From positions 55,871-119,870 of the IMG/VR virus record IMGVR_UViG_3300011399_000002: a stretch of DNA of 64,000 nucleotides; one strand, given 5' to 3'. Made by a program: the position numbers and the translations under genes. How positions within the stretch are numbered: the stretch's first letter is position 1; the number at the start of each line of letters is the position of its first letter. Below, one piece after another: positions 28,229-53,273 of this stretch. This DNA comes from a virus (Duplodnaviria > Heunggongvirae > Uroviricota > Caudoviricetes). Below the pieces are notes generated by a model, which was given only the letters and a program-made list of their open reading frames with translations, was not told where the DNA came from and ran no database searches.

Positions 28229-28431
28229 GTGCATACTATGAACTCATTAGAACTGAGTTTATCAACTTTGAGTATTCAGGTGAGAGTATTCAAGTTTGTC
28301 TAAATTGTGGTATAGAGATACAGGATGGTGAACGTATTCTAAGAGAAGTATTTAGAGTTATGGGGCATGATGATCATCTAGTATCTCTATGGCATATTCC
28401 TTGTTGGTATAGTGTGGAGACTGTAGAGTGA
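28225..28431 (+). CDS. hypothetical protein
   Basis: 68 aa, ATGA overlap. Confidence 0.4.
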   Translation: MSAYYELIRTEFINFEYSGESIQVCLNCGIEIQDGERILREVFRVMGHDDHLVSLWHIPCWYSVETVE

Positions 28432-29090
28432 AAGAATATCACAAGATTGACTCAGTATATAAGAGAGATGAAAGAGGAAAGTTTCTACTTGGTGAATTCT
28501 CTCGTCCTGAGTTTGAGTATCTAAAAGACCTTCCTTGGCTATGGACAGAGAAGATTGATGGTACTAATATCAGGGTAATGTGGAAGCCTGATGCTGCTTT
28601 TCCTGATGAGCCCTATATTAGTTTTGGAGGTAAGACTGAAAATGCTCAAATTCCCACTAAACTATATAGCCATCTAGCAACAACGTTTGCTCCATTGATG
28701 AATCAACTAATTGATACATTTGGAGAGACAGAAGTTTGTCTTTATGGTGAGGGATATGGAGCAGGAATTCAGAAGGGTGGAGGAAACTACTCTCCTGATC
28801 AAAAATTCATTCTCTTTGATGTAAAGATCGGAGATTGGTGGTTGACTAGGGAGAACGTAGAGGATATTGGGCGTAAGTTAAATATTCCTGTTGTACAACT
28901 AGGTCCACGCTATACTCTTTCTGAGATGATTGAGTATGTTGAACAAACTGCTAGGCTTCTAGAAGGAGCCCCATTTTCTAATATTGGAACAGCAAAAATT
29001 GAGGGTTGGGTAGGAACACCTGCTATTCCTCTATTTGCACGTAATGGTGATCGTATTATTACCAAGGTTAAGTATAGGGACTTTAAGTAA
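28428..29090 (+). CDS. RNA ligase-like nucleotidyltransferase (Rnl2-type)
   Basis: Motif I WTEKIDGTNIRV (KxDGxN), downstream YGEGYGAGIQKGG; size of an Rnl2 adenylyltransferase domain. Confidence 0.55.
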   Translation: MKEYHKIDSVYKRDERGKFLLGEFSRPEFEYLKDLPWLWTEKIDGTNIRVMWKPDAAFPDEPYISFGGKTENAQIPTKLYSHLATTFAPLMNQLIDTFGETEVCLYGEGYGAGIQKGGGNYSPDQKFILFDVKIGDWWLTRENVEDIGRKLNIPVVQLGPRYTLSEMIEYVEQTARLLEGAPFSNIGTAKIEGWVGTPAIPLFARNGDRIITKVKYRDFK

Positions 29091-30314: not shown

Positions 30315-30520
30315 TAAGGGAGATAGGGGTAGTATCTGTATAGAAGGTACTGTCAGTGAAACTGTTGCCGATATAAAAAGCGCACAGTTACGCACAAAAT
30401 TAGCCAAATGAATAAAAACAAAGCCATTTATGACACAAAATCGTGCATAAATGGCTTTTTTATTGCATTATGTGTGCAATCCCTATTTCATTGTATATTC
30501 CCTTCCATATCCATATCCGT

Positions 30521-30540
30521 GAGCCAATGGAGCGTGGGTT
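30521..30540 (+). repeat. GAGCCAATGGAG cassette motif copy 1
   Basis: GAGCCAATGGAG-cgtgggtt-ATATAA-GGTACTA; downstream 8-bp hairpin ATATAAGG/CCTTATAT. Confidence 0.6.
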
Positions 30541-30591
30541 ATATAAGGTACTACCTTATATTCACCATATTTTGATCCATATCCTTATTTT

Positions 30592-30610
30592 GAGCCAATG
30601 GAGAGAGGGC
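30592..30610 (+). repeat. GAGCCAATGGAG cassette motif copy 2 (divergent 3-prime half)
   Basis: TGAGCCAATGGAG-agagggca-TTTAGC. Confidence 0.5.
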
Positions 30611-30837
30611 ATTTAGCAAGGGCTGGGTATAAATTCGTGCACAAATCTCATAAAAAGTGTCATTTTACTGTATATGCCGATACAAAATAAAAATCGAATT
30701 AGAATGGAGTCCAGTTACGTAGAGTATATACAAAAAAGAACCATATCCATATACTATGGTATATACCTGCACCTTCATCTGTTGAGATTAACCCTGGCCC
30801 ATTCTTGCTGACATTAGTGCTTTCAATAAAGAAGCAT

Positions 30838-30866
30838 TTGACACCATATTCGACCTGTGATATAAT
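30838..30866 (+). promoter_or_regulatory. consensus sigma70 promoter for cassette-1 gene
   Basis: TTGACA-17 nt-TATAAT, followed by ~100-nt leader with GTACCGC...GCGGTAC hairpin. Confidence 0.65.
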
Positions 30867-30971
30867 CAGGGTACCGCAGATGCGACAGGGCGGTACTTAA
30901 CAACTGAATAGGGTCAGGAATTAGTGGGACTGATTGAACCTGTGATTTCACAAAGAAAGGTTCAACCTGAA

Positions 30972-31268
30972 ATGACCACCTACACTATCGCCAAGATTCG
31001 CGTCGTTACTCCCACCGAAACCATGCGCGAGAAGCATCCAGATCGTGCATTCACTGTCTTCGGTCAATTCTTCAATGAGAAGGGTGACAAGTTGTCGATC
31101 ACTAATAAGGTGATCACAACGGAAGACATTCTGCATCCTGAATTCAACATCGATGTTGCAAAGGGATTGCTCACAATTCATTCTGGCGAAAGGGGACGCA
31201 AAGCAGCGGCTTCAATCACACAGAATGACGTTAACGACATTCTCACTGCAATCCGCAAGTCCAAGTAA
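30972..31268 (+). CDS. cassette-1 small protein, paralog family B
   Basis: Start at MTTYTIAK aligns with MALVTYFV of ORF 31756; shared GERGRKA and LTI blocks. Confidence 0.5.
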   Translation: MTTYTIAKIRVVTPTETMREKHPDRAFTVFGQFFNEKGDKLSITNKVITTEDILHPEFNIDVAKGLLTIHSGERGRKAAASITQNDVNDILTAIRKSK

Positions 31269-31378
31269 ATTCAATTAGTTTCACTTCTCCTGATCCTATT
31301 TAGTTGTTAATCATTCAGTTTCAATTAAGTAATTTAATAAAGTAAATTAAATTAAATTTCAATTTATTTACATAAGCC

Positions 31379-31398
31379 GAGCCAATGGAGTGGGTTCC
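31379..31398 (+). repeat. GAGCCAATGGAG cassette motif copy 3
   Basis: GAGCCAATGGAG-tgggttcc-ATATTG-GGATACTA. Confidence 0.6.
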
Positions 31399-31592
31399 AT
31401 ATTGGGATACTACATTGAAATTCATATCCTGTTCCATAAAATGAATTAGATTTGGTCGCGTTTACATAAACGAATTACAATTCGGATGCGGTTACATATC
31501 CATATCCATATCCATGCACCAATTGGTGAGTGCCAATCTTTCTCCGATTGATGATGCCGCGAAGGTTGCGAAGCCCTCCCAGCGGTGTAACC

Positions 31593-31629
31593 GAACCGCA
31601 ACCTTACCGCTACCCTACCGCAATTGACG
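31593..31629 (+). promoter_or_regulatory. ACCGCAA direct-repeat / TTGAC element (cassette 2)
   Basis: gaACCGCAACCttACCGCtaccctACCGCAATTGACg ~125 bp upstream of ORF 31756. Confidence 0.4.
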
Positions 31630-31755
31630 CGAGAGGCACAATCCGCGAAGATACACCTATCACCAACGAGGAACGCTCCTCCCGGTGAGAACCTTAACAA
31701 GAGAATAGGAACAGGGGACCTACCCGCCGAACAGGCAGAAAGGTAAGGTCCACCA

Positions 31756-32124
31756 ATGGCGCTCGTTACGTATTTCGTTGACAAGATGCGCGCGGTTCCC
31801 CCGACTGGTAAGGTCGCGGAGAATAACCCCGAGCGTGTCCTCACCGTCAATGGCGTTTTCTACAGCACCAAGATTGACGAGAACGGCAATCGGGTTCGCA
31901 ATGAGAAGATGTCCTACACTACCAAAGCCGTCGATATCGAAGATGTCCTCGCAGGGGCGGAAGTCGATCTAGACGCCGGTACGCTCACCATTCCCGCAGG
32001 GGAGCGGGGACGCAAAGCCGATCCGGGGCTGGACGCTAATAGCGTCACGTCGCTACTCAATTCCATCCGCAATCCAATTCCTGAGCCCGAGCCGACACCG
32101 GCACCGGCCACCAAGAGCAAGTAA
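31756..32124 (+). CDS. cassette-2 small protein, paralog family B (GC-rich copy)
   Basis: Paralog of 30972-31268; AGGTAAGG RBS; C-terminal PEPEPTPAPA tail. Confidence 0.5.
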   Translation: MALVTYFVDKMRAVPPTGKVAENNPERVLTVNGVFYSTKIDENGNRVRNEKMSYTTKAVDIEDVLAGAEVDLDAGTLTIPAGERGRKADPGLDANSVTSLLNSIRNPIPEPEPTPAPATKSK

Positions 32125-32250
32125 CTAATTGGTCCCCTGTTCCTATCTCTCACCTAATCCTATTCTGTAACGTAATTGTAACGTAATTGCAACCATTACA
32201 AATACATTACAATTTCATTACAAAATCGAATTAGAACAGGCGTTCGTTAC

Positions 32251-32270
32251 AGCCAATGGAGTGAGGACCC
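32251..32270 (+). repeat. GAGCCAATGGAG cassette motif copy 4
   Basis: cAGCCAATGGAG-tgaggacc-CTGTAA-GGGGACTA. Confidence 0.55.
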
Positions 32271-32325
32271 TGTAAGGGGACTATGATCATCAGAATGATG
32301 AGAATAGGCCAATCCTTCGGATAGT

Positions 32326-32370
32326 CCGCAACCTTATCGCAACCATATCGATACCGAACCGCAATTGACA
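32326..32370 (+). promoter_or_regulatory. ACCGCAA direct-repeat / TTGACA element (cassette 3)
   Basis: CCGCAACCttatCGCAACCatatcgatACCGaACCGCAATTGACA. Confidence 0.4.
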
Positions 32371-32439
32371 TAGGGAACAGGAACAGGCATAGTACGCATA
32401 TCAGGTAAGTCACCTGAGCCACGGAGAAAGTAACAGAAT

Positions 32440-32697
32440 ATGGCAAGATATACGGAACCTGAAATCTCTACCGATCGTATCCATGATGACGGACCGTCAT
32501 TCGATATCACCCGGACAGAGATTGTCGGAACGGTTCACCTCTCCACAATGGGGAAGGATAGTCCCGTTAGCGTAGCGTTCGGGATCATCGCATCCTATCT
32601 CAATGAGAACCTTCGTTGGGACGGCGATACCGAAATCTCATTCACGGTTCCTGAGGGTCATACCTTCACAATCAACGCTACTCCCGCTCGTCAATAG
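32440..32697 (+). CDS. cassette-3 small protein
   Basis: 85-aa ORF after AGGTAAGT...GGAGAAAG RBS region. Confidence 0.45.
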   Translation: MARYTEPEISTDRIHDDGPSFDITRTEIVGTVHLSTMGKDSPVSVAFGIIASYLNENLRWDGDTEISFTVPEGHTFTINATPARQ

Positions 32698-32802
32698 CCT
32701 GTAGGATCAACGTTCCTGCGCCTATCTCCCCGATGCAATCTACAAAGTAAATTGTTGATTGAAACGAGAGATTGCATCAAATGGGCGCAGGAATAAATCC
32801 TA
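32698..32802 (+). terminator. long imperfect hairpin (terminator-like) after cassette-3 ORF
   Basis: Nested inverted repeats TGTAGGAT/ATCCTACA, TTCCTGCGCC/GGCGCAGGAA, GATGCAATCT/AGATTGCATC. Confidence 0.35.
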
Positions 32803-32995
32803 CACAATGTCTTAAAGATAGACGAAAGGTAGGGTGATTAATATCCGACGATAGATATAGAGTACGCTAGGTAAATGTACTGGAAATGCGTACACTGGTA
32901 GTCAAAAACCTGATACTACCATCCGAATAAGTAAATGCATACTAATACAAATGAATAACTATTCATAAAAATGAATAAATATACATAATTGAATT

Positions 32996-33015
32996 GAGCC
33001 AATGGAGTAGGAACC
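32996..33015 (+). repeat. GAGCCAATGGAG cassette motif copy 5
   Basis: GAGCCAATGGAG-taggaacc-TATATG-AGGTACT, flanked by AATTGAGCC/GGCTCAATT inverted repeat. Confidence 0.6.
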
Positions 33016-33216
33016 TATATGAGGTACTGGCTCAATTGTTGAGCCTGAGATTGAAAGCGCTCAATTGAATTACAAATTGAATTGCGTTCAGGTTCGAATT
33101 CGAATTGAATTGCATTCTTGTTCTGTTCTATACGCACAGGCGCCACGCGCACGCACGCGCACGGACCTATAGGATGCGCCCCGGAGAAAGGTTGCGATAG
33201 GCGAAATCGTTAGCTA

Positions 33217-33256
33217 CCGAACCGCAACCATTTCGTAACCGTACCGCAATAGACAA
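33217..33256 (+). promoter_or_regulatory. ACCGCAA direct-repeat element (cassette 4)
   Basis: ACCGaACCGCAACCatttcgtAACCGtACCGCAATAGACA. Confidence 0.35.
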
Positions 33257-33343
33257 TCCTCTCGCAGAGGAGCATGATGTGCACATCAGATCGATACCCG
33301 ATCTGAGCCGGGAGGCAGGAAAGCCTCACAGTCAACAGAAAGG

Positions 33344-33649
33344 TTGGCACATAGGATGGGCGTCTTTCTCGATCAGGCGGTTCTGGTTCTGGAACTGGCA
33401 CCGGACGATACGCTGGCCGCGTGGACTGAGGACTACCTCAATCGCGCTCCGGCATTCTTCTCCCCCGACGCCGATCCGTCGCAGGTGATGGCAGACTCTC
33501 TGCTGGGCAACCTGTTGGAGAACGAGAACCGGCAGCGCGGGAACGCTGCTACGGCTCGCAAGGTCTTCGCCGTCGTGAATGACGCGATTGGCACCGGCTA
33601 CGCCTCCTATGAGGATTACCTCGCGTCGATCCTCGACAACGGCTTCTAG
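33344..33649 (+). CDS. cassette-4 small protein
   Basis: 101-aa ORF, GC-rich. Confidence 0.4.
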   Translation: MAHRMGVFLDQAVLVLELAPDDTLAAWTEDYLNRAPAFFSPDADPSQVMADSLLGNLLENENRQRGNAATARKVFAVVNDAIGTGYASYEDYLASILDNGF

Positions 33650-33657
33650 CCTAGCCT

Positions 33658-33688
33658 AGGGGAGAGGGATGCATAATCCCTCTCCCCT
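33658..33688 (+). terminator. strong hairpin terminator after cassette-4 ORF
   Basis: AGGGGAGAGGGAT-gcata-ATCCCTCTCCCCT, 13-bp perfect stem. Confidence 0.5.
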
Positions 33689-33781
33689 ATACAATGCATA
33701 TACAATGCATATGTATACTGTATAATCATACATGCATGAATATGCATGATGATGAATAATTATGCATCGAACATTTGTTCT

Positions 33782-33800
33782 GAGCCAATGGAATGAGAAC
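33782..33800 (+). repeat. GAGCCAATGGAG cassette motif copy 6
   Basis: GAGCCAATGGAa-tgagaacc-ATGATG-AGGGACTA. Confidence 0.55.
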
Positions 33801-33964
33801 CATGATGAGGGACTATGGATGAATTGAACAAGCGTTCGAATTCGAATTCGAATTGGATTTCGTTCTTGTTCCCGTTCTAGTGCATGGCTATGGATGGGTA
33901 GCATGGATTGGATGAGCATGGATGAGCCATGACCCCATGAGGGTAGGGCTCATCTATGAGAATG

Positions 33965-33998
33965 TAACCCAATCGCAACCTTTCTGCTACTTGACAAT
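33965..33998 (+). promoter_or_regulatory. CGCAACC / TTGACA element (cassette 5)
   Basis: aaCCCAATCGCAACCtttctgctacTTGACAatg. Confidence 0.35.
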
Positions 33999-34068
33999 GA
34001 CGCATGGTGCGGTACGATGGGCGTAGCCCATCGAGGTTCGATGGTAGATGGTAGAAAGGGTTAGATAG

Positions 34069-34401
34069 ATGATCTACTTTGAGAATGCGAAGCGTACAAT
34101 CGATGCGACAAACGTGCCGTTTCTCAACGGATCGAACGTCGGACCCGGCTTTATGATCGATGACGCCTATACGATGGAAAGTGAGCGCGCACGGTACAGC
34201 GAAGCGCACGATACCTTGACGCTTTGGGTCCAGCGCAAGGAATTCGCAGGATCGTACGCGAAGCGCAACATGCATGATCTGCTCTACGTGTTGGGTGACG
34301 AATTCGACCGCAACGAATTCGAAGCGTTCCTCGCCTATGAGAATGAGACAGATATGATGGTGACAGCCTACCGTCATGAGATGACAGTCGCGGGGTTCTA
34401 G
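34069..34401 (+). CDS. cassette-5 small protein
   Basis: 110-aa ORF, RBS GAAAGGGTTAGATAGATG; preferred over antisense ORF 33877-34407. Confidence 0.45.
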   Translation: MIYFENAKRTIDATNVPFLNGSNVGPGFMIDDAYTMESERARYSEAHDTLTLWVQRKEFAGSYAKRNMHDLLYVLGDEFDRNEFEAFLAYENETDMMVTAYRHEMTVAGF

Positions 34402-34439
34402 CCTCACCAGTCAAGGTGAGGGATGAGCAATCATCCCTC
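34402..34439 (+). terminator. tandem hairpins after cassette-5 ORF
   Basis: CCTCACC-agtcaa-GGTGAGG and GAGGGATGA-gcaa-TCATCCCTC. Confidence 0.4.
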
Positions 34440-34473
34440 ACCCATCCATCCTCACATGAAAGGTGAGAATAAG

Positions 34474-34560
34474 ATGATCGATTACACCATTCCGATCCTA
34501 TTGGTTGCGATGCTCGCGCTAGCCGCGCTATGGAGTAGCGCGCGAGCCTATCGCGGGTAA
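34474..34560 (+). CDS. small hydrophobic peptide
   Basis: 28 aa MIDYTIPILLVAMLALAALWSSARAYRG with GGTGAG RBS; below ORF-track cutoff. Confidence 0.3.
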   Translation: MIDYTIPILLVAMLALAALWSSARAYRG

Positions 34561-34570
34561 TCAGGAACAG

Positions 34571-34605
34571 CTAGGGGATTGTATATCTATACAGTCCCCT
34601 AGTAT
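34571..34605 (+). terminator. hairpin CTAGGGGA...TCCCCTAG
   Basis: 8-bp stem, 16-nt loop, ends the cassette array. Confidence 0.35.
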
Positions 34606-34609
34606 TCAA

Positions 34610-35440
34610 ATGAATACTTATGCATAATATGACTTTGCCCGACTGTTACAGTCTACAAATAGTGGAACCAAAATCTGCAACTTTTTAGATAACTCTATTC
34701 CCATCATAAATGATGGTAACGCTCTAAATTTACATGGTAATATCGACCAAGGCAAAAGAAAAGCCCTACTAGGGATCAAAAGAGTCCGGGGGGAAACTCT
34801 CAATCAACCTAGTAGGGCTTTCCTGTGTAGGGCTAAAAATTGATCAGCCGTGAGACAGAAGTCTTTAGCACTACACAGGATCAGCGTCACAATTGGACGC
34901 CCATATTAAGTTAGGTGACTGTCGTTTATGACAGCCGCTATCCGTTAGGATAGTTAGGTGGGGAGTGGGATTCAAGTTTACCCACATGACTCGACAGGAC
35001 TACTTTTCTCAAAGAAGTATTTACGAGTCAACCAACCGTTAGCCTTGACGCGAATTCATTCTCTTTGATGCTATCGTAAAGTTTGAATTCAGGCAACGCT
35101 TCGGCTCCGGTCAAAGAGCCTCCGTCATACTTTTACCTACTGCACTACTTGTTTAAGGTAATGTGTTTAGGTTTGACTAATCTCAGAAGTTTTACCCTTG
35201 ATTAGCCGACGTTATCTGCGTCCGATTGTACGTTACGCGACTGACCCTGTGGCAGTCACTTTCCGTCATCCCCCTGCAACCGCCGCTAAGCGGCTGCATT
35301 GGTTGTACTATAGGGCACCTGAGCGATCCCGTCAAGTTAAGGTTCCTTAACCGAGTTTCAGGAGCGTGTAAGTTTGAGTAAAATTGCGCTTGACCGCAGA
35401 ATAGACCCGTGGTAGGATAGTAGGACGTACCCGGTATGGG
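34610..35440. other. ORF-poor structured non-coding region
   Basis: No credible ORF; 14-bp hairpin AAAGCCCTACTAGG...CCTAGTAGGGCTTT (34762-34821), CCGCCGCTAAGCGGC palindrome, many shorter stems. Confidence 0.3.
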
Positions 35441-35659
35441 TTGAGAGGGGAGGAGGGGAACAGGGCCAAATTGTCGCATGAAAAACGCTGTTCTCGTTGT
35501 AGGAAAGACTTTCCCCAAACAGAATCCTTCTTCTACGTCAGCCGTCAAGGACGTAAAAAGGCTCCCGGCTTCCAGTCTTATTGTATCCCTTGCACTAAGA
35601 CTGTGAATGCGGAAAACAAACTCCGAAGAAAGATAGTACAGTACAAAAGAGGGGTTTAA
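35441..35659 (+). CDS. hypothetical basic zinc-ribbon protein
   Basis: CSRC...CIPC, Lys/Arg-rich, 72 aa. Confidence 0.35.
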   Translation: MRGEEGNRAKLSHEKRCSRCRKDFPQTESFFYVSRQGRKKAPGFQSYCIPCTKTVNAENKLRRKIVQYKRGV

Positions 35660-35735
35660 GCCGTGCAGACGGTTAAGTGTTCTGTTAGAACAGTTACTCG
35701 CGCCACTCCTCATCTTTGTAACTATAGAACGTCCC

Positions 35736-36062
35736 TTGCTTCCTGTGTCAGTTGTAGACAAGTGTTCTGCACTCGACACAGGAACAAGCACCGTGATTGA
35801 TGAAATCTTTGCCCTTCCCGGTATATCTTGGTATTACGAGAAGGGTGAGAAGGTAATCGTTAAGGCTCTTGATGATGATATGGAGCCAATCGGTGAAGCT
35901 CTTATGATCTATTCGGGCCAGAATGTAAACGTTGCTGTCAATGAACTAGAGCAAGTCACAATACCCTACTTCATTGATGTTAACGGCTCTCTTATGGGAA
36001 TTGACTATCCCTATCAGGAGATTATTCAGATATCTCGCCAACAGGAACACAACCCCACTTAG
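35736..36062 (+). CDS. hypothetical protein
   Basis: 108-aa ORF. Confidence 0.4.
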   Translation: MLPVSVVDKCSALDTGTSTVIDEIFALPGISWYYEKGEKVIVKALDDDMEPIGEALMIYSGQNVNVAVNELEQVTIPYFIDVNGSLMGIDYPYQEIIQISRQQEHNPT

Positions 36063-49464: not shown

Positions 49465-49552
49465 GGAAGGTTGGCTGAGTCTGGCTTAAAGCGATAGTCT
49501 TGAAAACTATTGGTGTAACAACCCGTGGGTTCAAATCCCACACCTTCCTCCA
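49465..49552 (+). tRNA. tRNA-Ser (anticodon UGA)
   Basis: Perfect acceptor GGAAGGT/ACCTTCC, anticodon stem ATAGT/ACTAT loop CTTGAAA, long variable arm, T-arm GTGGG-TTCAAAT-CCCAC, CCA. Confidence 0.75.
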
Positions 49553-49820
49553 TTTATTATGAAAGGGAAAACAATGGCTAACGTAACTGCGGACGATTTG
49601 GTTCCCACATTCTGTGGAGTGTGTGGTACTCGTTTGGTAGAGTTTAGAATTGCTTCGGTTTCGGGTTATGACATTTATACTGGAACGCCCCTCAGCAATG
49701 AGAGTGTTTCTCGATCTTGTCCAAACCCAACGATCACAAAGAGTGGTCGATTTAGCGCACCGTCAACTACCCAGCATCGAACCTATCGGTTTGAAAAGGA
49801 TAGTTGGGTCTAATTACAGT

Positions 49821-49894
49821 GGGGTTATCGTTCAACGGGAGGACGACTGCTTTGCACGCAGTAAATCAGGGTTCAATTCCCTGTAGCTCCACCA
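49821..49894 (+). tRNA. tRNA-Ala (anticodon UGC)
   Basis: Anticodon stem ACTGC/GCAGT loop TTTGCAC, T-arm CAGGG-TTCAATT-CCCTG, acceptor with two G-U pairs, CCA. Confidence 0.55.
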
Positions 49895-49901
49895 ATAAGT
49901 T

Positions 49902-50099
49902 ATGAAGATTGAGTTAATCACAAGAGAAGAATACGAGAAGCGTACCAAGTATTGGATTCGTAAGTACGAGTGGTTCTGTGGTGTATGCGGTAGATTAGAG
50001 GGTAAAGAGTGGACGAGAGTCTATGATGAACCTAGACCTGATGCATGGCACGAACGTAACGAGATAGACGAAAACCATATTTGTTACGGTTGTTACTAA
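49902..50099 (+). CDS. hypothetical zinc-ribbon protein
   Basis: CGVCG ... CYGCY, 65 aa, between two tRNAs. Confidence 0.35.
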   Translation: MKIELITREEYEKRTKYWIRKYEWFCGVCGRLEGKEWTRVYDEPRPDAWHERNEIDENHICYGCY

Positions 50100-50174
50100 G
50101 GCTCCGAACCTAAACGGACAAGGGTCTGTCTGCAAAACAGATTTTAGTGGGTTCGACTCCCACCGGAGTCTCCA
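50100..50174 (+). tRNA. tRNA-Cys (anticodon GCA)
   Basis: 75 nt, acceptor GGCTCCG/CGGAGTC, anticodon stem TCTGT/ACAGA loop CTGCAAA, T-arm GTGGG-TTCGACT-CCCAC, discriminator U, CCA. Confidence 0.65.
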
Positions 50175-50407: not shown

Positions 50408-51937
50408 ATGGCAAGATTAAACGCAACTAAGCGAACAAGGGTTACAGAAACATTAGCAGAGGAAACTACAACTAACCTAGCAGGTGGGAAGGCTTTTAAG
50501 TTAACTCCCCATGCAAAGTTAATTGAACAGGTTGTAGGTGCGTTCTGGAACGAGGATTTGTACTACGCTAAGGGCTCTAAGACTTCCGCACAGATTGTGC
50601 AGGGTGTTAAGGACGTAGCAAAGGATGATCCTAGATTCCCACTACAGCTAGCAGCATACGCTAGAAACGTTCTCTATCTGCGAACAACCCCACAGGTTTT
50701 GCTTGTGGAAGCATCACGTATTGAAGCGTGCAAGCCATTCGTTCGTGAATATACTTCAAAGATTGTAAAGCGAGCAGACGAATTAACTGATATCGTTGCT
50801 TACTACACTTCTACATCAGGCTCACACAAGGGCTTCCCTAACTCTCTAAAGAGAGGACTGGCTGATGCATTCGTGAAGTTTGATGAATACCAGTTAAATA
50901 AGTATGACTCTTCAAAGTCAGTTGTAACACTTGGTCAGGTAGCACAGTTAGTGCACCCAGCGTTGGGTAAGGCTATGTACAACTTCCTCACAAAGGATGA
51001 AGTTGATGCAGAGGCTCTTCCTAAGATTGGGGCTCTAAAGGCTCTATTGGCTAAGGATAAGATTGATGCAGAGGCTATCGAGTTAATCGGTAAGTCAAAT
51101 GTAACTTGGGAAACCCTTATCTCAAAGTTTGGGGCATCCAAGGAAACTTGGGAATTAGTAATTCCTAATATGGGTTATATGGCACTTCTTAGAAACCTAA
51201 GAAACTTCGAACAGAAGGGTGTCAATCTAACTCCTGTATTAGCACGGATTGCAAATCCTGAGGAAGTAAAGCGCTCAAAGCAACTTCCATATCGGTTCTA
51301 TTCTGCTTACCTACAGGTATCAGAACAGAAGGTGCAGCGTGCAATCGCTCAGGCGTTTGAACACAGCATTTCAAATGTCCGACTTGAAGGTCGTACAGCC
51401 GTTATGGTAGACTTGTCTGGAAGCATGGGATCAGCACTATCGGATAAGTCAGCAATGTCCTATCGAAACGTGGGTACCGTGCTTGGAGCCATCGTTGTAA
51501 AGAAGTCAGAGGAATCTGTAGCAATTGGTTTCGGTGATACCGCGCAGATTGCAAAGATCAACCCTGATGACACAATGATGACAAATATTGATAAGATTGA
51601 TAAGTTACCAGTGGGTCACTCAACTAATGCCTATCGAGGCTTCCAAGTCTTGGGCAACAGAGTAGTTGATCGTGTGGTAGTTATCTCTGATATGCAGTGC
51701 TACGGTGGTAACGAATACTACGGTAGTGGCCTATCAAACGCTTGGGATGAATACGTGAAGAACGTAAATCCAAATGCAAGACTCTACTCGCTAGATGTTA
51801 GCGCATATGGATCAAAGCAATTCCCAAGCAGAAAGAACAACGTTGTAACTCTTAACGGCTGGTCAGACAAGATCATCGATATGATTGGTGTCTACGAACG
51901 TGAAGGTGCAATGCTTGATGAGGTTAGAAAGTGGTAG
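50408..51937 (+). CDS. rsr: Ro60 ortholog Rsr (TROVE domain + vWA domain)
   Basis: N-terminal NLAGGKAFKL...VVGAFWNEDLYY matches the Rsr/Ro60 signature (NPAGG...GSxxGTYY), C-terminal vWA with MIDAS VMVDLSGSMGS; 509 aa. Confidence 0.75.
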   Translation: MARLNATKRTRVTETLAEETTTNLAGGKAFKLTPHAKLIEQVVGAFWNEDLYYAKGSKTSAQIVQGVKDVAKDDPRFPLQLAAYARNVLYLRTTPQVLLVEASRIEACKPFVREYTSKIVKRADELTDIVAYYTSTSGSHKGFPNSLKRGLADAFVKFDEYQLNKYDSSKSVVTLGQVAQLVHPALGKAMYNFLTKDEVDAEALPKIGALKALLAKDKIDAEAIELIGKSNVTWETLISKFGASKETWELVIPNMGYMALLRNLRNFEQKGVNLTPVLARIANPEEVKRSKQLPYRFYSAYLQVSEQKVQRAIAQAFEHSISNVRLEGRTAVMVDLSGSMGSALSDKSAMSYRNVGTVLGAIVVKKSEESVAIGFGDTAQIAKINPDDTMMTNIDKIDKLPVGHSTNAYRGFQVLGNRVVDRVVVISDMQCYGGNEYYGSGLSNAWDEYVKNVNPNARLYSLDVSAYGSKQFPSRKNNVVTLNGWSDKIIDMIGVYEREGAMLDEVRKW

Positions 51938-52151: not shown

Positions 52152-52226
52152 GGCCCTATCGTCTATCGGATAGGACACCAGACTTTCAATCTGATAAGCG
52201 GGGTTCGACTCCCCGTAGGGCTACCA
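52152..52226 (+). tRNA. tRNA-Glu (anticodon UUC)
   Basis: Acceptor GGCCCTA/TAGGGCT, loop CTTTCAA, T-arm CGGGG-TTCGACT-CCCCG, CCA. Confidence 0.65.
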
Positions 52227-52237
52227 AAGACAACTTA

Positions 52238-52390
52238 ATAATAGTCTAGTGTCGGAAACGGTTACTTCTACAAACTTTTTGTTTCACTAACAAACCATCT
52301 AGTCCGGGTAATGCGGATCAGGTTGTGTGCGAAGCATGATTGACTCTAAGGAAAGGACTTAGTGACGAATCGGAAGTAAGACGATAAAGC
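52238..52390 (+). ncRNA. element B of TAGTGTAG family (candidate Y-RNA-like RNA)
   Basis: CTAGTGTCggaaACGGTTACTTC; GTTACTTC can pair with GGAAGTAAG ~110 nt downstream; no ORF. Confidence 0.3.
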
Positions 52391-52557
52391 CTCCGTTCCA
52401 TTTAATCTGACTATTACAATCTTTGCCCATTCAGTAGCAATGGACGCCAAACAAGCAGTCACCGGGCCATGTGGACTATACTGGTAGGGATATGGCTGTT
52501 GAGGTAGGAATGGTCCACCATGTTTATTGCTACCGAATGCGCAAAGCGCAGAATTTA

Positions 52558-52700
52558 GGATAGTGTAGATAACAGTTACTTCTCTTTGGGCGACGTGATG
52601 TGGGTTCGAATCCTACTCTCCCAACAAAATCGATGGGAGATAGCTTAATGGTAAAGCGCGAAAATTTCTGTAGTCGCTTTAATCTTCCTAAAATAGTCAT
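52558..52700 (+). ncRNA. element C: Y-RNA-like RNA with tRNA-like module
   Basis: TAGTGTAGataACAGTTACTTC, then T-arm GTGGG-TTCGAAT-CCTAC, 7-bp loop-capped helix TCTCCCA/TGGGAGA, then D-arm GCTT-AATGGTA-AAGC. Confidence 0.4.
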
Positions 52701-52795
52701 CGCTCACCCAGTAGACGAATTCATACAAGGCAGAACGTAAGGGTTGCAACCGCCCGCCTATGAAATGGTCTACCGGATGCGCGACGGCGCATCAA

Positions 52796-52915
52796 TCTTT
52801 AGTGTAGTGTTTGTTACGGTTCCTTCGATAAATGTATATCAATTGACTTCAAATCAATCTTTGTAGGTTCAAGTCCTACAGGAATAATGTCCGTAGCGCC
52901 TCTATCCTCACTAAT
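52796..52915 (+). ncRNA. element D: Y-RNA-like RNA enclosing a tRNA-like cloverleaf (anticodon-position UCA)
   Basis: TTAGTGTAG pairs with CTA(tcct)CACTAA ~95 nt downstream; enclosed 52818-52887 folds as acceptor GGTTCCT/AGGAATA, D GATA/TATC, ATTGA-CTTCAAA-TCAAT, T-arm GTAGG-TTCAAGT-CCTAC, no CCA. Confidence 0.4.
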
Positions 52916-52922
52916 ATATCGC

Positions 52923-52999
52923 TCTCCTATGGTGTAACTAGGTAAGCATACCTGTCTGTTAAACAGTTGGTATAGGTTCGAATCCTGTTGGGAGAGCCA
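52923..52999 (+). tRNA. tRNA-Asn (anticodon GUU), tentative
   Basis: Acceptor TCTCCTA/TGGGAGA, loop CTGTTAA, T-arm ATAGG-TTCGAAT-CCTGT, CCA; U1-A72 start unusual. Confidence 0.5.
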
Positions 53000-53004
53000 A
53001 CTTT

Positions 53005-53202
53005 TTGAGGTGTTATATGGCAAACTTCAAGCGCAAGCACCCTAAGCACAGAATCCTACGGGATTGCAATGCTCATTGTAAATACGATGGAAGTCACTAT
53101 ACTAGTATAAATGGTAGGGAAAGATACCTACCGATGTATTGGAAGAAGGTGGGTGGAAGACACGCTTGGAGATACCTACATAAGAACGTAGACATTCGCT
53201 GA
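53005..53202 (+). CDS. hypothetical basic protein
   Basis: 65 aa, His/Lys/Arg-rich, between two tRNAs. Confidence 0.3.
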   Translation: MRCYMANFKRKHPKHRILRDCNAHCKYDGSHYTSINGRERYLPMYWKKVGGRHAWRYLHKNVDIR

Positions 53203-53273
53203 GGATTGGTGTAACGGCAGCACCGGAGATTTTGGTCCTCCTAGAAAGGGTTCGAATCCCTTATCCTCTGCCA
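53200..53273 (+). tRNA. tRNA, probably Gln (anticodon UUG)
   Basis: D-arm GGTG-TAACGGCAG-CACC, T-arm AAGGG-TTCGAAT-CCCTT, acceptor TGAGGAT/ATCCTCT, CCA; anticodon arm imperfect. Confidence 0.5.

Follow-up and report, generated by a model that had tools for sequence, protein, structure and literature searches.

What kind of structure strings small genes together at this locus, and what do the sequences they share do? The window analysed here (the whole stretch, 64 kb) comes from an uncultured phage of ~120 kb and carries five self-contained small genes in a row, separated by a deeply conserved repeat. Sequence comparison makes it probable, in our view, that the array is a hyperplastic row of early-gene 'expression slots' belonging to an uncultured phage clade, analogous to the promoter-early stem-loop (PeSL) cassettes of the hyperplastic regions of T4-type phages (Arbiol et al. 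2010, PMC2839356; Comeau et al. 2014, PMC4122927), with a richer scaffold. Phages of this clade have genomes of about 115-120 kb and encode a family-A DNA polymerase, RNR, NAMPT and many tRNAs.

Anatomy of the slots

Each slot has the layout predicted for a stand-alone transcription unit, with a sigma-70-type promoter, a 5' stem-loop, the motif AGAAAGG resembling a ribosome site, a small ORF and a 3' hairpin. Before each slot lies a co-oriented inter-cassette repeat of ~100-170 nt, recognized from sequence as one or two 35-nt units followed by GAATT/GTTC(TG)TTC iteron-like blocks; the 35-nt unit comprises an invariant AGCC[A/C]AT[G/A]GA box and a variable tail predicted to be weakly hairpin-prone. 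The features, all on the + strand, are as follows.

30414-30464 (+): predicted hairpin and T-run terminator ending the small-ORF operon upstream; the array's left edge (inverted repeat I3, 19-nt arms, 89% complementary; T-run read from sequence)
30521-30555 (+): box unit m0a, GAGCCAATGGAG plus about 23 nt
30592-30626 (+): box unit m0b, paired with m0a ahead of slot 1 (D3)
30690-30718 (+): iteron-like block of inter-cassette repeat 0, AAATCGAATTAGAAT..CCAGTTAC, 80% identical to L016 418-487
30838-30896 (+): slot 1 promoter, TTGACA-17-TGtTATAAT (12/12, promoter scoring), and 5' stem-loop 30870-30896 (fold)
30897-30938 (+): 5' arm of the ORF1 panhandle, TTAACAACTGAATAGGGTCAGGA... (I2, 23 nt, 91% complementary)
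30972-31268 (+): ORF1 (ORF-A), 98 aa, conserved head family (NPDR..GTLTLPxGxRGR; profile and homology searches)
31270-31310 (+): 3' arm of the ORF1 panhandle (inverted repeat, fold, duplex)
31379-31413 (+): box unit m1, exact motif copy (repeat search)
31440-31496 (+): two iteron-like copies, AATGAATTAGAT..GCGTTTAC and AACGAATTACAAT..GCGGTTAC, 87% identical to L016 1171-1240
31586-31652 (+): slot 2 promoter, 11-bp-phased ACCGCAA-type repeats (matches at 31586, 31597 and 31608, D1/D2) running into TTGACG-17-GAAGAT (hexamers read from sequence)
31660-31720 (+): slot 2 leader with 5' stem-loop, CCTTAACAA, GAATAG and the 5' panhandle arm 31705-31720 (I5, 16/16 complementary)
31756-32124 (+): ORF2 (ORF-B), 122 aa, ORF1 paralog (homology searches)
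32131-32146 (+): 3' arm of the ORF2 panhandle (I5, fold, duplex)
32154-32234 (+): long imperfect AT-rich hairpin, 39-nt arms, iteron copy inside at 32222-32249 (I1)
32250-32284 (+): box unit m2, CAGCCAATGGAG
32327-32415 (+): slot 3 promoter, phased repeats and TTGACA-17-CATAGT (scoring, phasing), and 5' stem-loop (read from sequence)
32440-32697 (+): ORF3, 85 aa, ORFan (codon-position test ambiguous)
32699-32810 (+): long imperfect hairpin 3' of ORF3 (read from sequence only)
32996-33030 (+): box unit m3, motif copy (repeat search)
33060-33128 (+): GAATT-repeat / GTTCTTGTTCTGTTC block of inter-cassette repeat 3 (D12, 85% identical to 33832-33871)
33212-33305 (+): slot 4 promoter, phased repeats and TAGACA-17-CATGAT (scoring, phasing), and 5' stem-loop ATCAGATCG..CGATCTGA
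33356-33649 (+): ORF4, 97 aa, ORFan, GC3 79% (homology searches, composition)
33657-33689 (+): perfect 14-bp hairpin 3' of ORF4, without T-run (I16)
33782-33816 (+): box unit m4, GAGCCAATGGAA
33821-33877 (+): GAATTC-repeat / GTTCTTGTTCCCGTTC block of inter-cassette repeat 4 (D12, iteron enrichment)
33963-34044 (+): slot 5 promoter, phased repeats and TTGACA-16-TACGAT (scoring, phasing), and 5' stem-loop
34069-34401 (+): ORF5, 110 aa, ORFan (coding pattern confirmed)
34474-34560 (+): candidate 28-codon hydrophobic mini-ORF, putatively co-transcribed with ORF5 (ORF list, sequence)
34571-34602 (+): terminal hairpin at the right end of the array, with no box unit after it (I15)

A promoter-like element can be predicted for every module, as a preliminary description of this DNA had claimed: slot 1 (TTGACA-17-TATAAT with an extended TG, 30838-30866) scores 12/12, the sites at 32365 and 33991 score 10/12 and that at 33250 scores 9/12, with TTGACG-17-GAAGAT of slot 2 (31624-31652) read from the sequence. 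Shuffled sequence contains as many promoter-like sites overall as the region does; the sites named here are meaningful because of their position and of the 11-bp-phased repeats they share upstream. Promoters, terminators and early timing are predictions from sequence. Within the window array, the + strand yielded no terminator of consensus type, which makes read-through plausible. The slot 4 stem-loop has an inverted homolog in the leader of a minus-strand slot (c5) of the related array L022. Note that the leader motif CCTTAACAA bears a mere resemblance to boxA.

The modules are independent small-gene cassettes sharing control sequences, each with an ORF of 85-122 codons (85-125 in the preliminary description). 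ORF1, ORF2, ORF4 and ORF5 display the coding pattern GC3>GC1>GC2; ORF3 is ambiguous on that test. The long antisense ORFs 31446-31850 and 33877-34407, already suspected to be spurious, lack the pattern and are rich in R/C/H/W/S.

A positionally conserved box between the slots

The motif AGCCAATGGA occurs in six exact copies in the 64-kb window, all on the + strand and within 30521-33792 (starts 30522, 30593, 31380, 32251, 32997 and 33783), against a mean of 0.19 in shuffles, none of which reached six. The 12-mer GAGCCAATGGAG is present exactly four times and with one mismatch twice, with no further copy at up to one mismatch elsewhere in the window, and the repeat around the motif extends over about 34-35 nt (direct-repeat family D3). 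The start-to-start spacings are 71, 787, 871, 746 and 786 bp: the periodicity expected of five modules with a motif in each is there, but the copies number six, with two ahead of module 1. The spacer repeats previously listed as lying upstream of the motif are also present, but TTCGAATTCGAATT, CATGGATG and CGCGCACG sit 3' of a motif copy and 5' of the next promoter. ATCGAATTAGAA and its near copies, observed 20 times against 7.8 expected, cluster within the array.

The motif is kept in related arrays, which together with its excess over chance makes it a real, positionally conserved element. In the window and seven related loci we counted 74 box copies, every one of them in + strand orientation and none outside the arrays; even where identity of the head protein to that of a relative is down to about 27-39%, the box persists as AGCCCATGGA(G/C). 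The relatives' slots face either way and every copy nevertheless stays on the + strand, which places the motif outside the genes' own transcription units, contrary to what had been proposed.

Gene replacement within conserved scaffolds

Comparison with five distinct related arrays from metagenomes indicates that the repeat and the regulatory scaffold are kept and that genes are swapped, inverted, gained and lost. More specifically, the ORF1/ORF2 family stands at the head of every related array, the downstream ORFs vary, in either orientation and in different slots, and ORF3-5 have no homolog in any relative examined. The L016 iteron block is 87% identical to that of the window, compared to 76% for coding DNA; the GAATT-repeat / GTTCTTGTTCTGTTC block type is also found 3' of box units in L022 and L025, and L022 9383-9414 has a terminator followed by the first repeat, matching the layout of the window's left edge. 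Identical content with uniform GC, which the preliminary description had set against its own proposal, is not observed, since the relatives vary in their cassettes.

L022 and L025, which are syntenic at 67-74% identity, locate the breakpoints. A full-length ortholog (66% aa) of the c5 gene of L022 (13068-13373, minus strand) occupies another slot in L025. At two positions of the array, homology is lost where the repeat finishes and is regained from the start codon or leader onward, the breaks lying at scaffold edges and not at the box. The unit replaced or moved is the ORF with its predicted terminator, and the promoter, leader and repeat stay put; judging from the arrays aligned, slots are invertible and repeats are never inverted. 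The breakpoints, from this one pair and two positions, suggest recombination through the scaffolds. The conserved scaffolds would then act as portable regulatory sequence and provide the homologous stretches through which recombination shuffles ORFs, a role suggested for the PeSL cassettes of T4-type phages.

Old paralogs at the head of the array

By homology, the array head consists of two old paralogs, ORF-A and ORF-B, and the tail of lineage-specific ORFans. The paralogy of ORF1 and ORF2 noted earlier was borne out (38% identity, E = 1e-21), but the pair goes back to an old duplication that every array retains at its head and does not represent a diversifying cassette type. A profile search with the head family collected 62 representatives (42 at E < 1e-10), none of them in Pfam or PHROGs, and the cassette proteins belong to no Pfam or PHROG family. 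ORF1, ORF3 and ORF4 have no match in deposited phages, the ORF1 structure model has no significant structural neighbour, and ORF5 matches only itself among 5.8 billion proteins. The counter-defence nursery suggested in the preliminary description would be a conjectural role for these proteins.

The ORF-A and ORF-B mRNAs are predicted to be closed by a covarying 5'UTR/3'UTR panhandle. For ORF1, the minimum free energy fold closes the entire CDS (z = -7.3), with a duplex of -57.9 kcal/mol (z = -10.2). Duplex z is at or below -2.5 in 15 of 16 head-family genes (range -1.2 to -10.2), with differing arm sequences, and lies between +0.3 and -2.3 in the other nine cassettes. Because strand asymmetry is absent (p = 0.38), the panhandle is assigned to RNA by its location inside the transcription unit.

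Base composition and the origin of the array

The GC content of ORF1-5 is 46.8, 57.7, 50.4, 61.6 and 52.6%, and their GC3 is 56, 68, 52, 79 and 68%, compared to a GC3 of 26-44% in backbone genes. Cassette 1, described earlier as AT-rich like the rest of the genome, is thus intermediate. The GC shift had been taken as a sign of serial acquisition. Along the same line, cassettes 2-5 could be recent horizontal imports (morons), with other phages or a host of high GC as the donor, their shared sequences being functionless leftovers of tandem duplication, a view that the absence of ORF3-5 from relatives and a GC3 of up to 79% would fit. We consider it improbable: all five related arrays show the same excess (GC 49-52% vs 37-44% in the backbone), as does ORF-B (GC3 68-81% across arrays), inherited vertically with ORF-A, so that the shift is a property of the array and not proof of recent import. 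Moreover, noncoding blocks are better conserved than coding DNA between relatives (87% vs 76%) and the 11-mer is invariant over deep divergence, which argues that the shared sequences are under selection. The share of codons matching the phage U34 tRNAs within their codon families is 25% for array genes vs 38.5% for the backbone (p = 2e-4); the GC3-rich codons of the slot genes would avoid those that the phage's own tRNAs read, and the slots would be early genes transcribed by the host RNA polymerase.

An integron-like platform, in which the box and hairpin form a folded, attC-like or HUH/TnpA-like site used by a dedicated recombinase to insert, excise and invert cassettes, would account for small ORFs, most of them orphans, being parted by co-oriented repeats about every 750 bp, for ORFs lying either way round between fixed repeats, for cassettes varying in content and order between relatives, and for a conserved, single-stranded-looking box adjoining a variable hairpin-prone tail. 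It appears very improbable, given that no integrase or recombinase domain occurs on genes within ±10 kb (precomputed Pfam) or among the 25 listed of the 58 Pfam families found for the window, that each cassette has its own predicted promoter, and that breakpoints fall at the whole-repeat end and the start codon, with promoter and leader scaffolds, beyond the repeats, conserved around swapped ORFs too. Core sites of the attC type (RYYYAAC/GTTRRRY) were not seen by eye at cassette boundaries.

What the box may do

The box would be a cis-acting element read on the + strand by a clade-conserved factor. Our tentative first choice, short of an even chance, is a boundary element on the + strand, linked to an RNA hairpin and serving termination or processing; we weakly prefer it to a promoter or operator, and to a recombination site of the integron kind. 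On the + strand, box tails fold about 1 kcal/mol better than dinucleotide shuffles, a small excess (p = 2e-4) not seen on the minus strand. A few units carry a T-run (L016 1111, L021 1498, L028 11151, L031 10523), and in L021 a plain predicted intrinsic terminator holds the position after ORF-B. A simple terminator of the preceding gene cannot be the general function, because units stay on the + strand beside minus-strand slots. RNAalifold predicts no fixed-register hairpin in the units, and the hairpin pairs we proposed did no better than shuffled columns and lacked covariation.

The main alternative is a double-stranded DNA site, either a phage-specific, activator-dependent promoter or the operator of a phage regulator, which would drive or gate rightward transcription over each slot; as a promoter, the box would be centred near -25 with an A/T-rich -10-like patch and a G/C-rich start region, by a logic comparable to T4 MotA-box middle promoters. 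The failed fixed-register test speaks for it, as do the information profile (invariant 11-mer, A/T-rich patch 7-9 nt on, then GGGRCG), 18 -10-like hexamer matches at offsets 17-22 over 34 GGAG-type units, units often in tandem about 35 nt apart like tandem promoters, and the orientation of every copy with the surrounding + strand genes. We nonetheless find it rather unlikely: the A/T patch carries ~0.5 bit per position at an unfixed offset, where a real -10 is sharper; the slot promoter or ORF lies at a variable distance from the box, between 115 and 254 bp; neither a sigma factor nor an RNA polymerase is among the 25 listed of the 58 Pfam families found for the window; and the folding excess is confined to the + strand. 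In addition, the box is found nowhere else in the 64 kb and so does not define a general middle or late promoter class.

Altogether, the array itself was confirmed as first observed (motif counts, spacing, slot parts, paralogy); of its interpretation, the real motif, independent cassettes, gain and loss, and paralogy hold, but acquisition deduced from GC, the diversifying cassette type and the motif within the gene unit do not.

Comparison with known systems

Integron cassette arrays and chromosomal superintegron repeats, such as those of Vibrio cholerae, also combine small orphan genes with co-oriented structured repeats, in ordered arrays of variable content with some cassettes inverted; here, in contrast, cassettes have their own promoters, no integrase was found nearby and breakpoints lie off the repeat core. 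Large lytic phages have pre-early or host-takeover clusters (the SPO1 terminal-redundancy module, the T5 pre-early region) where, similarly, many small genes of unknown function are grouped, all or almost all of them equipped with hairpins and a strong host-type promoter of their own; we know of no deeply conserved, orientation-locked inter-gene box or slot-wise ORF replacement described there. Stems processed by RNase III flank 16S and 23S rRNA, and RNase III sites occur in T7 early mRNAs. The predicted stems closing ORF-A and ORF-B transcripts likewise join upstream and downstream sequence (16-38 bp in the window, a wider range in relatives, with arms covarying between relatives), but they enclose a whole small protein-coding sequence.

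The closest parallel is with PeSL cassettes, where densely repeated regulatory motifs lie between small, mostly orphan genes of a variable region, conserved motifs bound indels and replacements between relatives, and a role in recombination-mediated modular shuffling has been proposed (PMC2839356, PMC4122927). All three traits have their counterpart here: repeated motifs among small orphan genes, indels and replacements delimited by conserved motifs, and modular shuffling by recombination as the proposed process. We read this as analogy, the clade lying outside the T4-type phages as far as can be judged from its family-A polymerase and from best matches of only about 28% identity in deposited phages. 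There are also differences from PeSLs: the repeated element, a composite of box units, iterons, phased promoter repeats and leader, is far larger, its invariant 11-mer is separate from the promoter (115-254 bp away), the repeats are strictly co-oriented though slots invert, and the element is conserved over very deep divergence.

The box and its repeat unit

The array is punctuated by an 11-nt box, AGCCAATGGA, which occurs six times in the window where 0.19 copies would be expected, always on the + strand, and of which no further copy with one mismatch or less was found elsewhere in the window:

30522, + strand: box, first copy
30593, + strand: box, second copy
31380, + strand: box, third copy
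32251, + strand: box, fourth copy
32997, + strand: box, fifth copy
33783, + strand: box, sixth copy

The repeat around the box is ~34 nt long, and from the second copy onwards successive copies lie 787, 871, 746 and 786 bp apart. The observation at the origin of the preliminary description, a motif recurring every ~750–870 bp, is thus borne out with small corrections. Altogether, the window and seven related metagenomic loci contain 74 copies of the box, all on the + strand and none outside the arrays; tandem pairs of box units (the box with its variable tail), ~35 nt apart, are frequent. The information profile of the unit comprises the invariant 11-mer, (C)G, an A/T-rich patch at +20 to +23 (~0.5 bit) and GGGRCG at +25 to +30. 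The box still reads AGCCCATGGA(G/C) in the relatives that have diverged most, although the proteins of the head family (ORF1 and ORF2 of the window, or ORF-A and ORF-B) are only ~27–39% identical there.

No antisense partner of the box was found in the window, and the curated covariance models of Rfam 15 gave no match at or near the gathering score for the units of the window and of locus L022, only chance-level miRNA matches on AT-rich hairpins. Our literature search retrieved no paper describing the motif; the string turned up in unrelated papers alone, where it seems to belong to primers or constructs of non-phage studies.

Cassette turnover between related arrays

The contigs encoding the head family fall into five distinct related arrays (L022, L025, L027, L028 and L031) and two short fragments (L016 and L021), with ~3 (L028) to ~10 (L022) called cassette genes per array. 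The ORF-A/ORF-B pair stands at the head of every array, with three copies in L027, and none of the relatives has ORF3–5 of the window. Noncoding blocks are 87% identical between the window and L016, coding DNA 76%. L022 and L025 are syntenic, with 67–74% identity, and differ in slot content (a slot being one cassette position with promoter, leader and ORF). More specifically, at two array positions their homology stops where the inter-cassette repeat (ICR), made of box unit(s) and iteron-like blocks, ends, and resumes at the start codon or the leader; only the ORF and its terminator are replaced, and the breakpoints do not lie at the 11-mer.

Minus-strand cassettes are real, since the one at L022 13068–13373 has a full-length ortholog, 66% identical, in another slot of L025. 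The leader stem-loop of this L022 slot has an inverted homologue in the leader of window slot 4. Box units keep their orientation even beside such inverted slots.

The interpretation offered in the preliminary description therefore stands in part: the existence of cassettes and their turnover between relatives hold, as do the shared control sequences, every module having the same layout of promoter, leader and repeat, whereas the motif does not behave as part of each gene's own unit and the meaning given to the GC shift has to be abandoned (see below).

Wider searches added one genome. The tandem-unit pattern gave mostly chance matches in IMG/VR, yet they included the genome of the L022 phage (114,680 bp); in genomes of bacteria and archaea its matches were scattered, with no array-like spacing among the matches listed. 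A degenerate 19-mer scan of IMG/VR returned 13 singletons, which we took as chance. Querying IMG/VR for related loci with the head family gave no match, and the upstream 148-aa ORF retrieved weak relatives only, devoid of the motif.

Anatomy of a module

Each module reads, in order, box unit, iteron-like block, simple repeats, promoter, 5' stem-loop, AGAAAGG, ORF, 3' hairpin and AT-rich stretch. The iteron-like block exists in two forms, ATCGAATTAGAA..GTTAC, or GAATT repeats followed by GTTCTTGTTC. Every slot contains a TTGACA-type promoter-like element and a leader, the element of slot 1 being perfect (TTGACA-17-TGnTATAAT, 12/12). Slots 2–5 have in common three or four ACCGCAA-like repeats in 11-bp phase leading into the −35 hexamer; these phased repeats and the iterons are restricted to the array. 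The most conserved repeat, the 11-mer box, differs from the promoter. A 5' stem-loop lies 3' of each promoter and hairpins lie 3' of the ORFs; no + strand consensus-type terminator was found within the window array.

The ribosome-site-like AGAAAGG is found in nearly every cassette of the window and of L022, where its form is GGAAAGGA, at ~11–14 nt 5' of the start codon; in the modules of the window it precedes the ATG by 11–12 nt. The AGAAAGG-to-ATG regions of the window are:

30955–30971, + strand: slot 1
31738–31755, + strand: slot 2
32423–32439, + strand: slot 3
33338–33355, + strand: slot 4
34054–34068, + strand: slot 5

This distance is unusually long: either the host tolerates it or the motif has another role.

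Three other elements recur in the arrays. The ORF-A and ORF-B leaders carry CCTTAACAA 3' of the 5' stem-loop (window 30895–30908 and 31690–31703; also in L016, L021 and L022). We take it to resemble the boxA antitermination element (GCTCTTTAACAA), in which case the stem-loop followed by the motif presumably reproduces a boxB–boxA-like order. Next, GTGAC(C/A)AATGGC(A/C)CTTGACA, which has a CCAATGG core in common with the box and may be an operator, stands beside several slots of L022:

L022 11975–11995: second repeated element
L022 13500–13520: second repeated element
L022 14209–14230: second repeated element
L022 14293–14320: second repeated element
L022 14988–15010: second repeated element
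L022 16126–16147: second repeated element

Its counterpart in the window is the palindrome CACCAATTGGTG (31514–31540). Finally, TTCTGTT recurs many times in the ICRs (e.g. L022 11395–11415, 12140–12160, 12915–12935 and 14440–14490; window 33113–33135); it presumably resembles ATCTGTT, the class II signal at which T7-type RNA polymerases pause or terminate, no such polymerase being seen in the window.

Cassette proteins

The + strand ORFs display the GC3>GC1>GC2 pattern of coding sequences, ORF3 being ambiguous; the long antisense ORFs do not, in keeping with their earlier dismissal as spurious. ORF1 and ORF2 are indeed paralogs, as had been proposed (38% identity, E=1e-21). Their family is real but unnamed: a profile search of 1.84 billion representatives yielded 62 matches, 42 of them with E<1e-10, all ~100–150 aa long. 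Weak profile matches to giant repetitive proteins looked compositional and were discarded. Pfam and PHROGs gave nothing usable for any of the five ORFs, with no family for ORF1/ORF2, ORF3 or ORF4; tblastn against deposited phages with ORF1, ORF3 and ORF4 as queries gave no match, and ORF5 matched only itself. The AlphaFold model of a head-family protein (pLDDT 77.8) is rich in beta structure and also shows a C-terminal helix and an RGRK loop that is disordered; it has no significant structural neighbour.

Composition and predicted mRNA panhandles

GC3 reaches 52–81% in the array ORFs and 26–44% in backbone genes. As array GC exceeds that of the backbone in 5/5 relatives and high GC3 is seen for ORF-B of the window as well as of L022, the shift is a standing property of array genes and not the trace of a recent import. 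Array genes under-use the codons decoded by the U34 tRNAs that the phage encodes (25% vs 38.5%, p=2e-4; not independent of GC3), and AUA is absent (0/28). This bias, inasmuch as it can be separated from GC3, would fit translation of the array genes before the phage tRNAs accumulate.

ORF1 is flanked by complementary 5' and 3' UTR segments with a core repeat of 23 nt; in its minimum free energy fold two helices, ~38 bp in total, close the whole coding sequence (z=-7.3). Likewise, ORF2 is enclosed by a 16/16 stem extending to ~20 bp. Such a panhandle is common in the family: the best 5'UTR/3'UTR duplex has z <= -2.5 for 15/16 family genes in 8 loci (range -1.2 to -10.2), as compared to +0.3 to -2.3 for nine other cassettes. 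Past a common GAATAG the arms differ in sequence. The pairing is mostly Watson–Crick, and strand asymmetry is not significant; from its location, we infer that the panhandle acts as RNA. RNase III would probably accept a stem this long as substrate.

Genomic setting

The gene content of the window is that of a phage (family-A DNA polymerase, primase, ribonucleotide reductase, NAMPT, RNA ligase, TROVE protein and 10 tRNAs), and the identical sequence is also present on a 119,888-bp metagenomic contig. The polymerase is only ~28% identical to those of the closest deposited phages, which belong to unrelated groups, and a DNA search of deposited phages with 30400–34700 gave no match. The array occupies the same location in the window and L028, 3' of the RNA-ligase small-ORF run and 5' of a convergent minus-strand metabolic block.

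Directly 3' of the array, ~1.2–1.4 kb (34610–35790) are without genes. This stretch has in common with L022 17050–17149 only 34754–34808 (stem AAAGCCCTACTAGG..CCTAGTAGGGCTTT) and a 15-mer at 34682–34696. A manA RNA match at 34955–35120 (minus strand, 34.2 bits, E=3.5e-6) is below the gathering score of 55.2; we set it aside, since L022 gives no Rfam match and the candidate is thus not reproduced in a relative.

Elsewhere in the window, a TROVE (Ro60-like) protein (50408–51937, Pfam 1.5e-35) is encoded between tRNA clusters 49465–50171 and 52152–53273. With a PolyA_pol-head (CCA-adding-like) enzyme and the RNA ligase (28428–29090), it seems to make up a kit for RNA repair or quality control; no Y-RNA-like gene came out of the Rfam scan at gathering scores. 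ARAGORN calls a 70-nt 'tRNA-SeC' with anticodon TCA at 52818–52887, which is more likely a UGA-suppressor tRNA because 70 nt is too short for a genuine tRNA-Sec. tRNA-Ile(TAT) has two genes (17490 and 58396).

Possible roles of the box

The 30 nt 3' of the box fold more stably on the + strand than dinucleotide shuffles (-5.55 vs -4.53 kcal/mol, p=2e-4), an excess that is absent from the minus strand (p=0.22). A few box units are followed by a T-run, and in L021 an ordinary terminator lies where a box unit is expected. Taken with the fixed orientation, these features lead us weakly to favour a role for the box on the + strand: linked to a hairpin, it would mark a boundary or a processing site and be recognised by a conserved factor. 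The chief competing view is that it works as double-stranded DNA, as a promoter or operator. The box units yielded no consensus structure, and a fixed-register consensus hairpin was rejected, its helix being no better than shuffled columns; as for a promoter, the box does not qualify as a sigma-70 -35 element, its spacing to the A/T patch being too short and variable. A conserved mini-ORF starting at the box was rejected too: three window copies read ATG-GAG/GAA-stop, but ATA replaces ATG in many units.

Least likely is an integron-like recombination site. Integrons have attI and the intI tyrosine recombinase gene next to the cassettes, which are promoterless and expressed from a common Pc promoter, whereas every cassette of the array has its own promoter-like element and leader. 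The attC sites at integron cassette boundaries are imperfect palindromes with RYYYAAC/GTTRRRY cores; here, the boundaries are AGCCAATGGAG units with no consistent palindrome, homology breaks elsewhere than at the unit, and inspection by eye revealed no such cores at cassette boundaries. No recombinase domain was found on the genes called within ±10 kb of the array, nor among the 25 listed of the 58 Pfam families that 53 window ORFs gave.

A further reading, which we consider improbable, is that the array is not merely a hyperplastic region but a dedicated platform for gene exchange and expression, whose orientation-locked AGCC(A/C)ATGGA box and hairpin would be read single-stranded by a clade-specific factor. 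The ORF-A/ORF-B family, always at the array head and endowed with an RGR(K) loop, may be one candidate for this putative factor. Such a factor may serve to insulate or process the transcripts of slots, or may catalyse the steps by which cassettes are inserted, excised and inverted. If true, this would be an integrase-independent, integron-like system aboard a lytic phage.

Comparison with the PeSLs of T4-type phages

Orphan and host-interaction genes turn over in the hyperplastic regions of phages, and a sequence-level mechanism has been described only for T4-type phages, whose promoter-early stem-loop cassettes (PeSLs) are the closest analogue of the array. The PeSL motif contains a sigma-70 consensus early promoter, repeated, with a stem-loop in or beside it that serves as terminator or attenuator; PeSLs occupy hyperplastic regions beside ORFans, indels between relatives are bounded by the motifs, and recombination between motifs, in the T4-like myoviruses that carry them, yields excised minicircles (PMC2839356, PMC4122927). 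Similarly, the array has repeated sigma-70-type promoter and stem-loop motifs and lies in a hyperplastic region beside ORFans, with motif-bounded replacement between relatives. A 5' stem-loop comes after each promoter and hairpins after the ORFs; the box tails fold slightly better than shuffles and showed no consistent structure. The window phage appears not to be T4-like, its DNA polymerase being of family A and not of the gp43 type, the conserved core of the array is not a promoter, and the scaffold of promoter, leader and repeat is larger, orientation-locked and conserved over far greater divergence. On these grounds we place the array outside the PeSL family.

The box offers a defined, testable cis element, and the head family a small set of proteins, with which to study the way phages arrange, express and exchange accessory genes; the promoters, leaders and boundaries of the array also form a compact collection of natural parts. 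Our comparison suggests that an unrelated clade of uncultured phages reached a PeSL-like solution in a more elaborate form, with (i) fixed regulatory slots in which the ORF alone is exchanged; (ii) a boundary box that stays conserved long after proteins have lost similarity; (iii) a pair of head genes, likewise conserved, whose mRNAs would form panhandles; and (iv) a lasting bias towards GC-rich codons and away from those served by the tRNAs of the phage itself.
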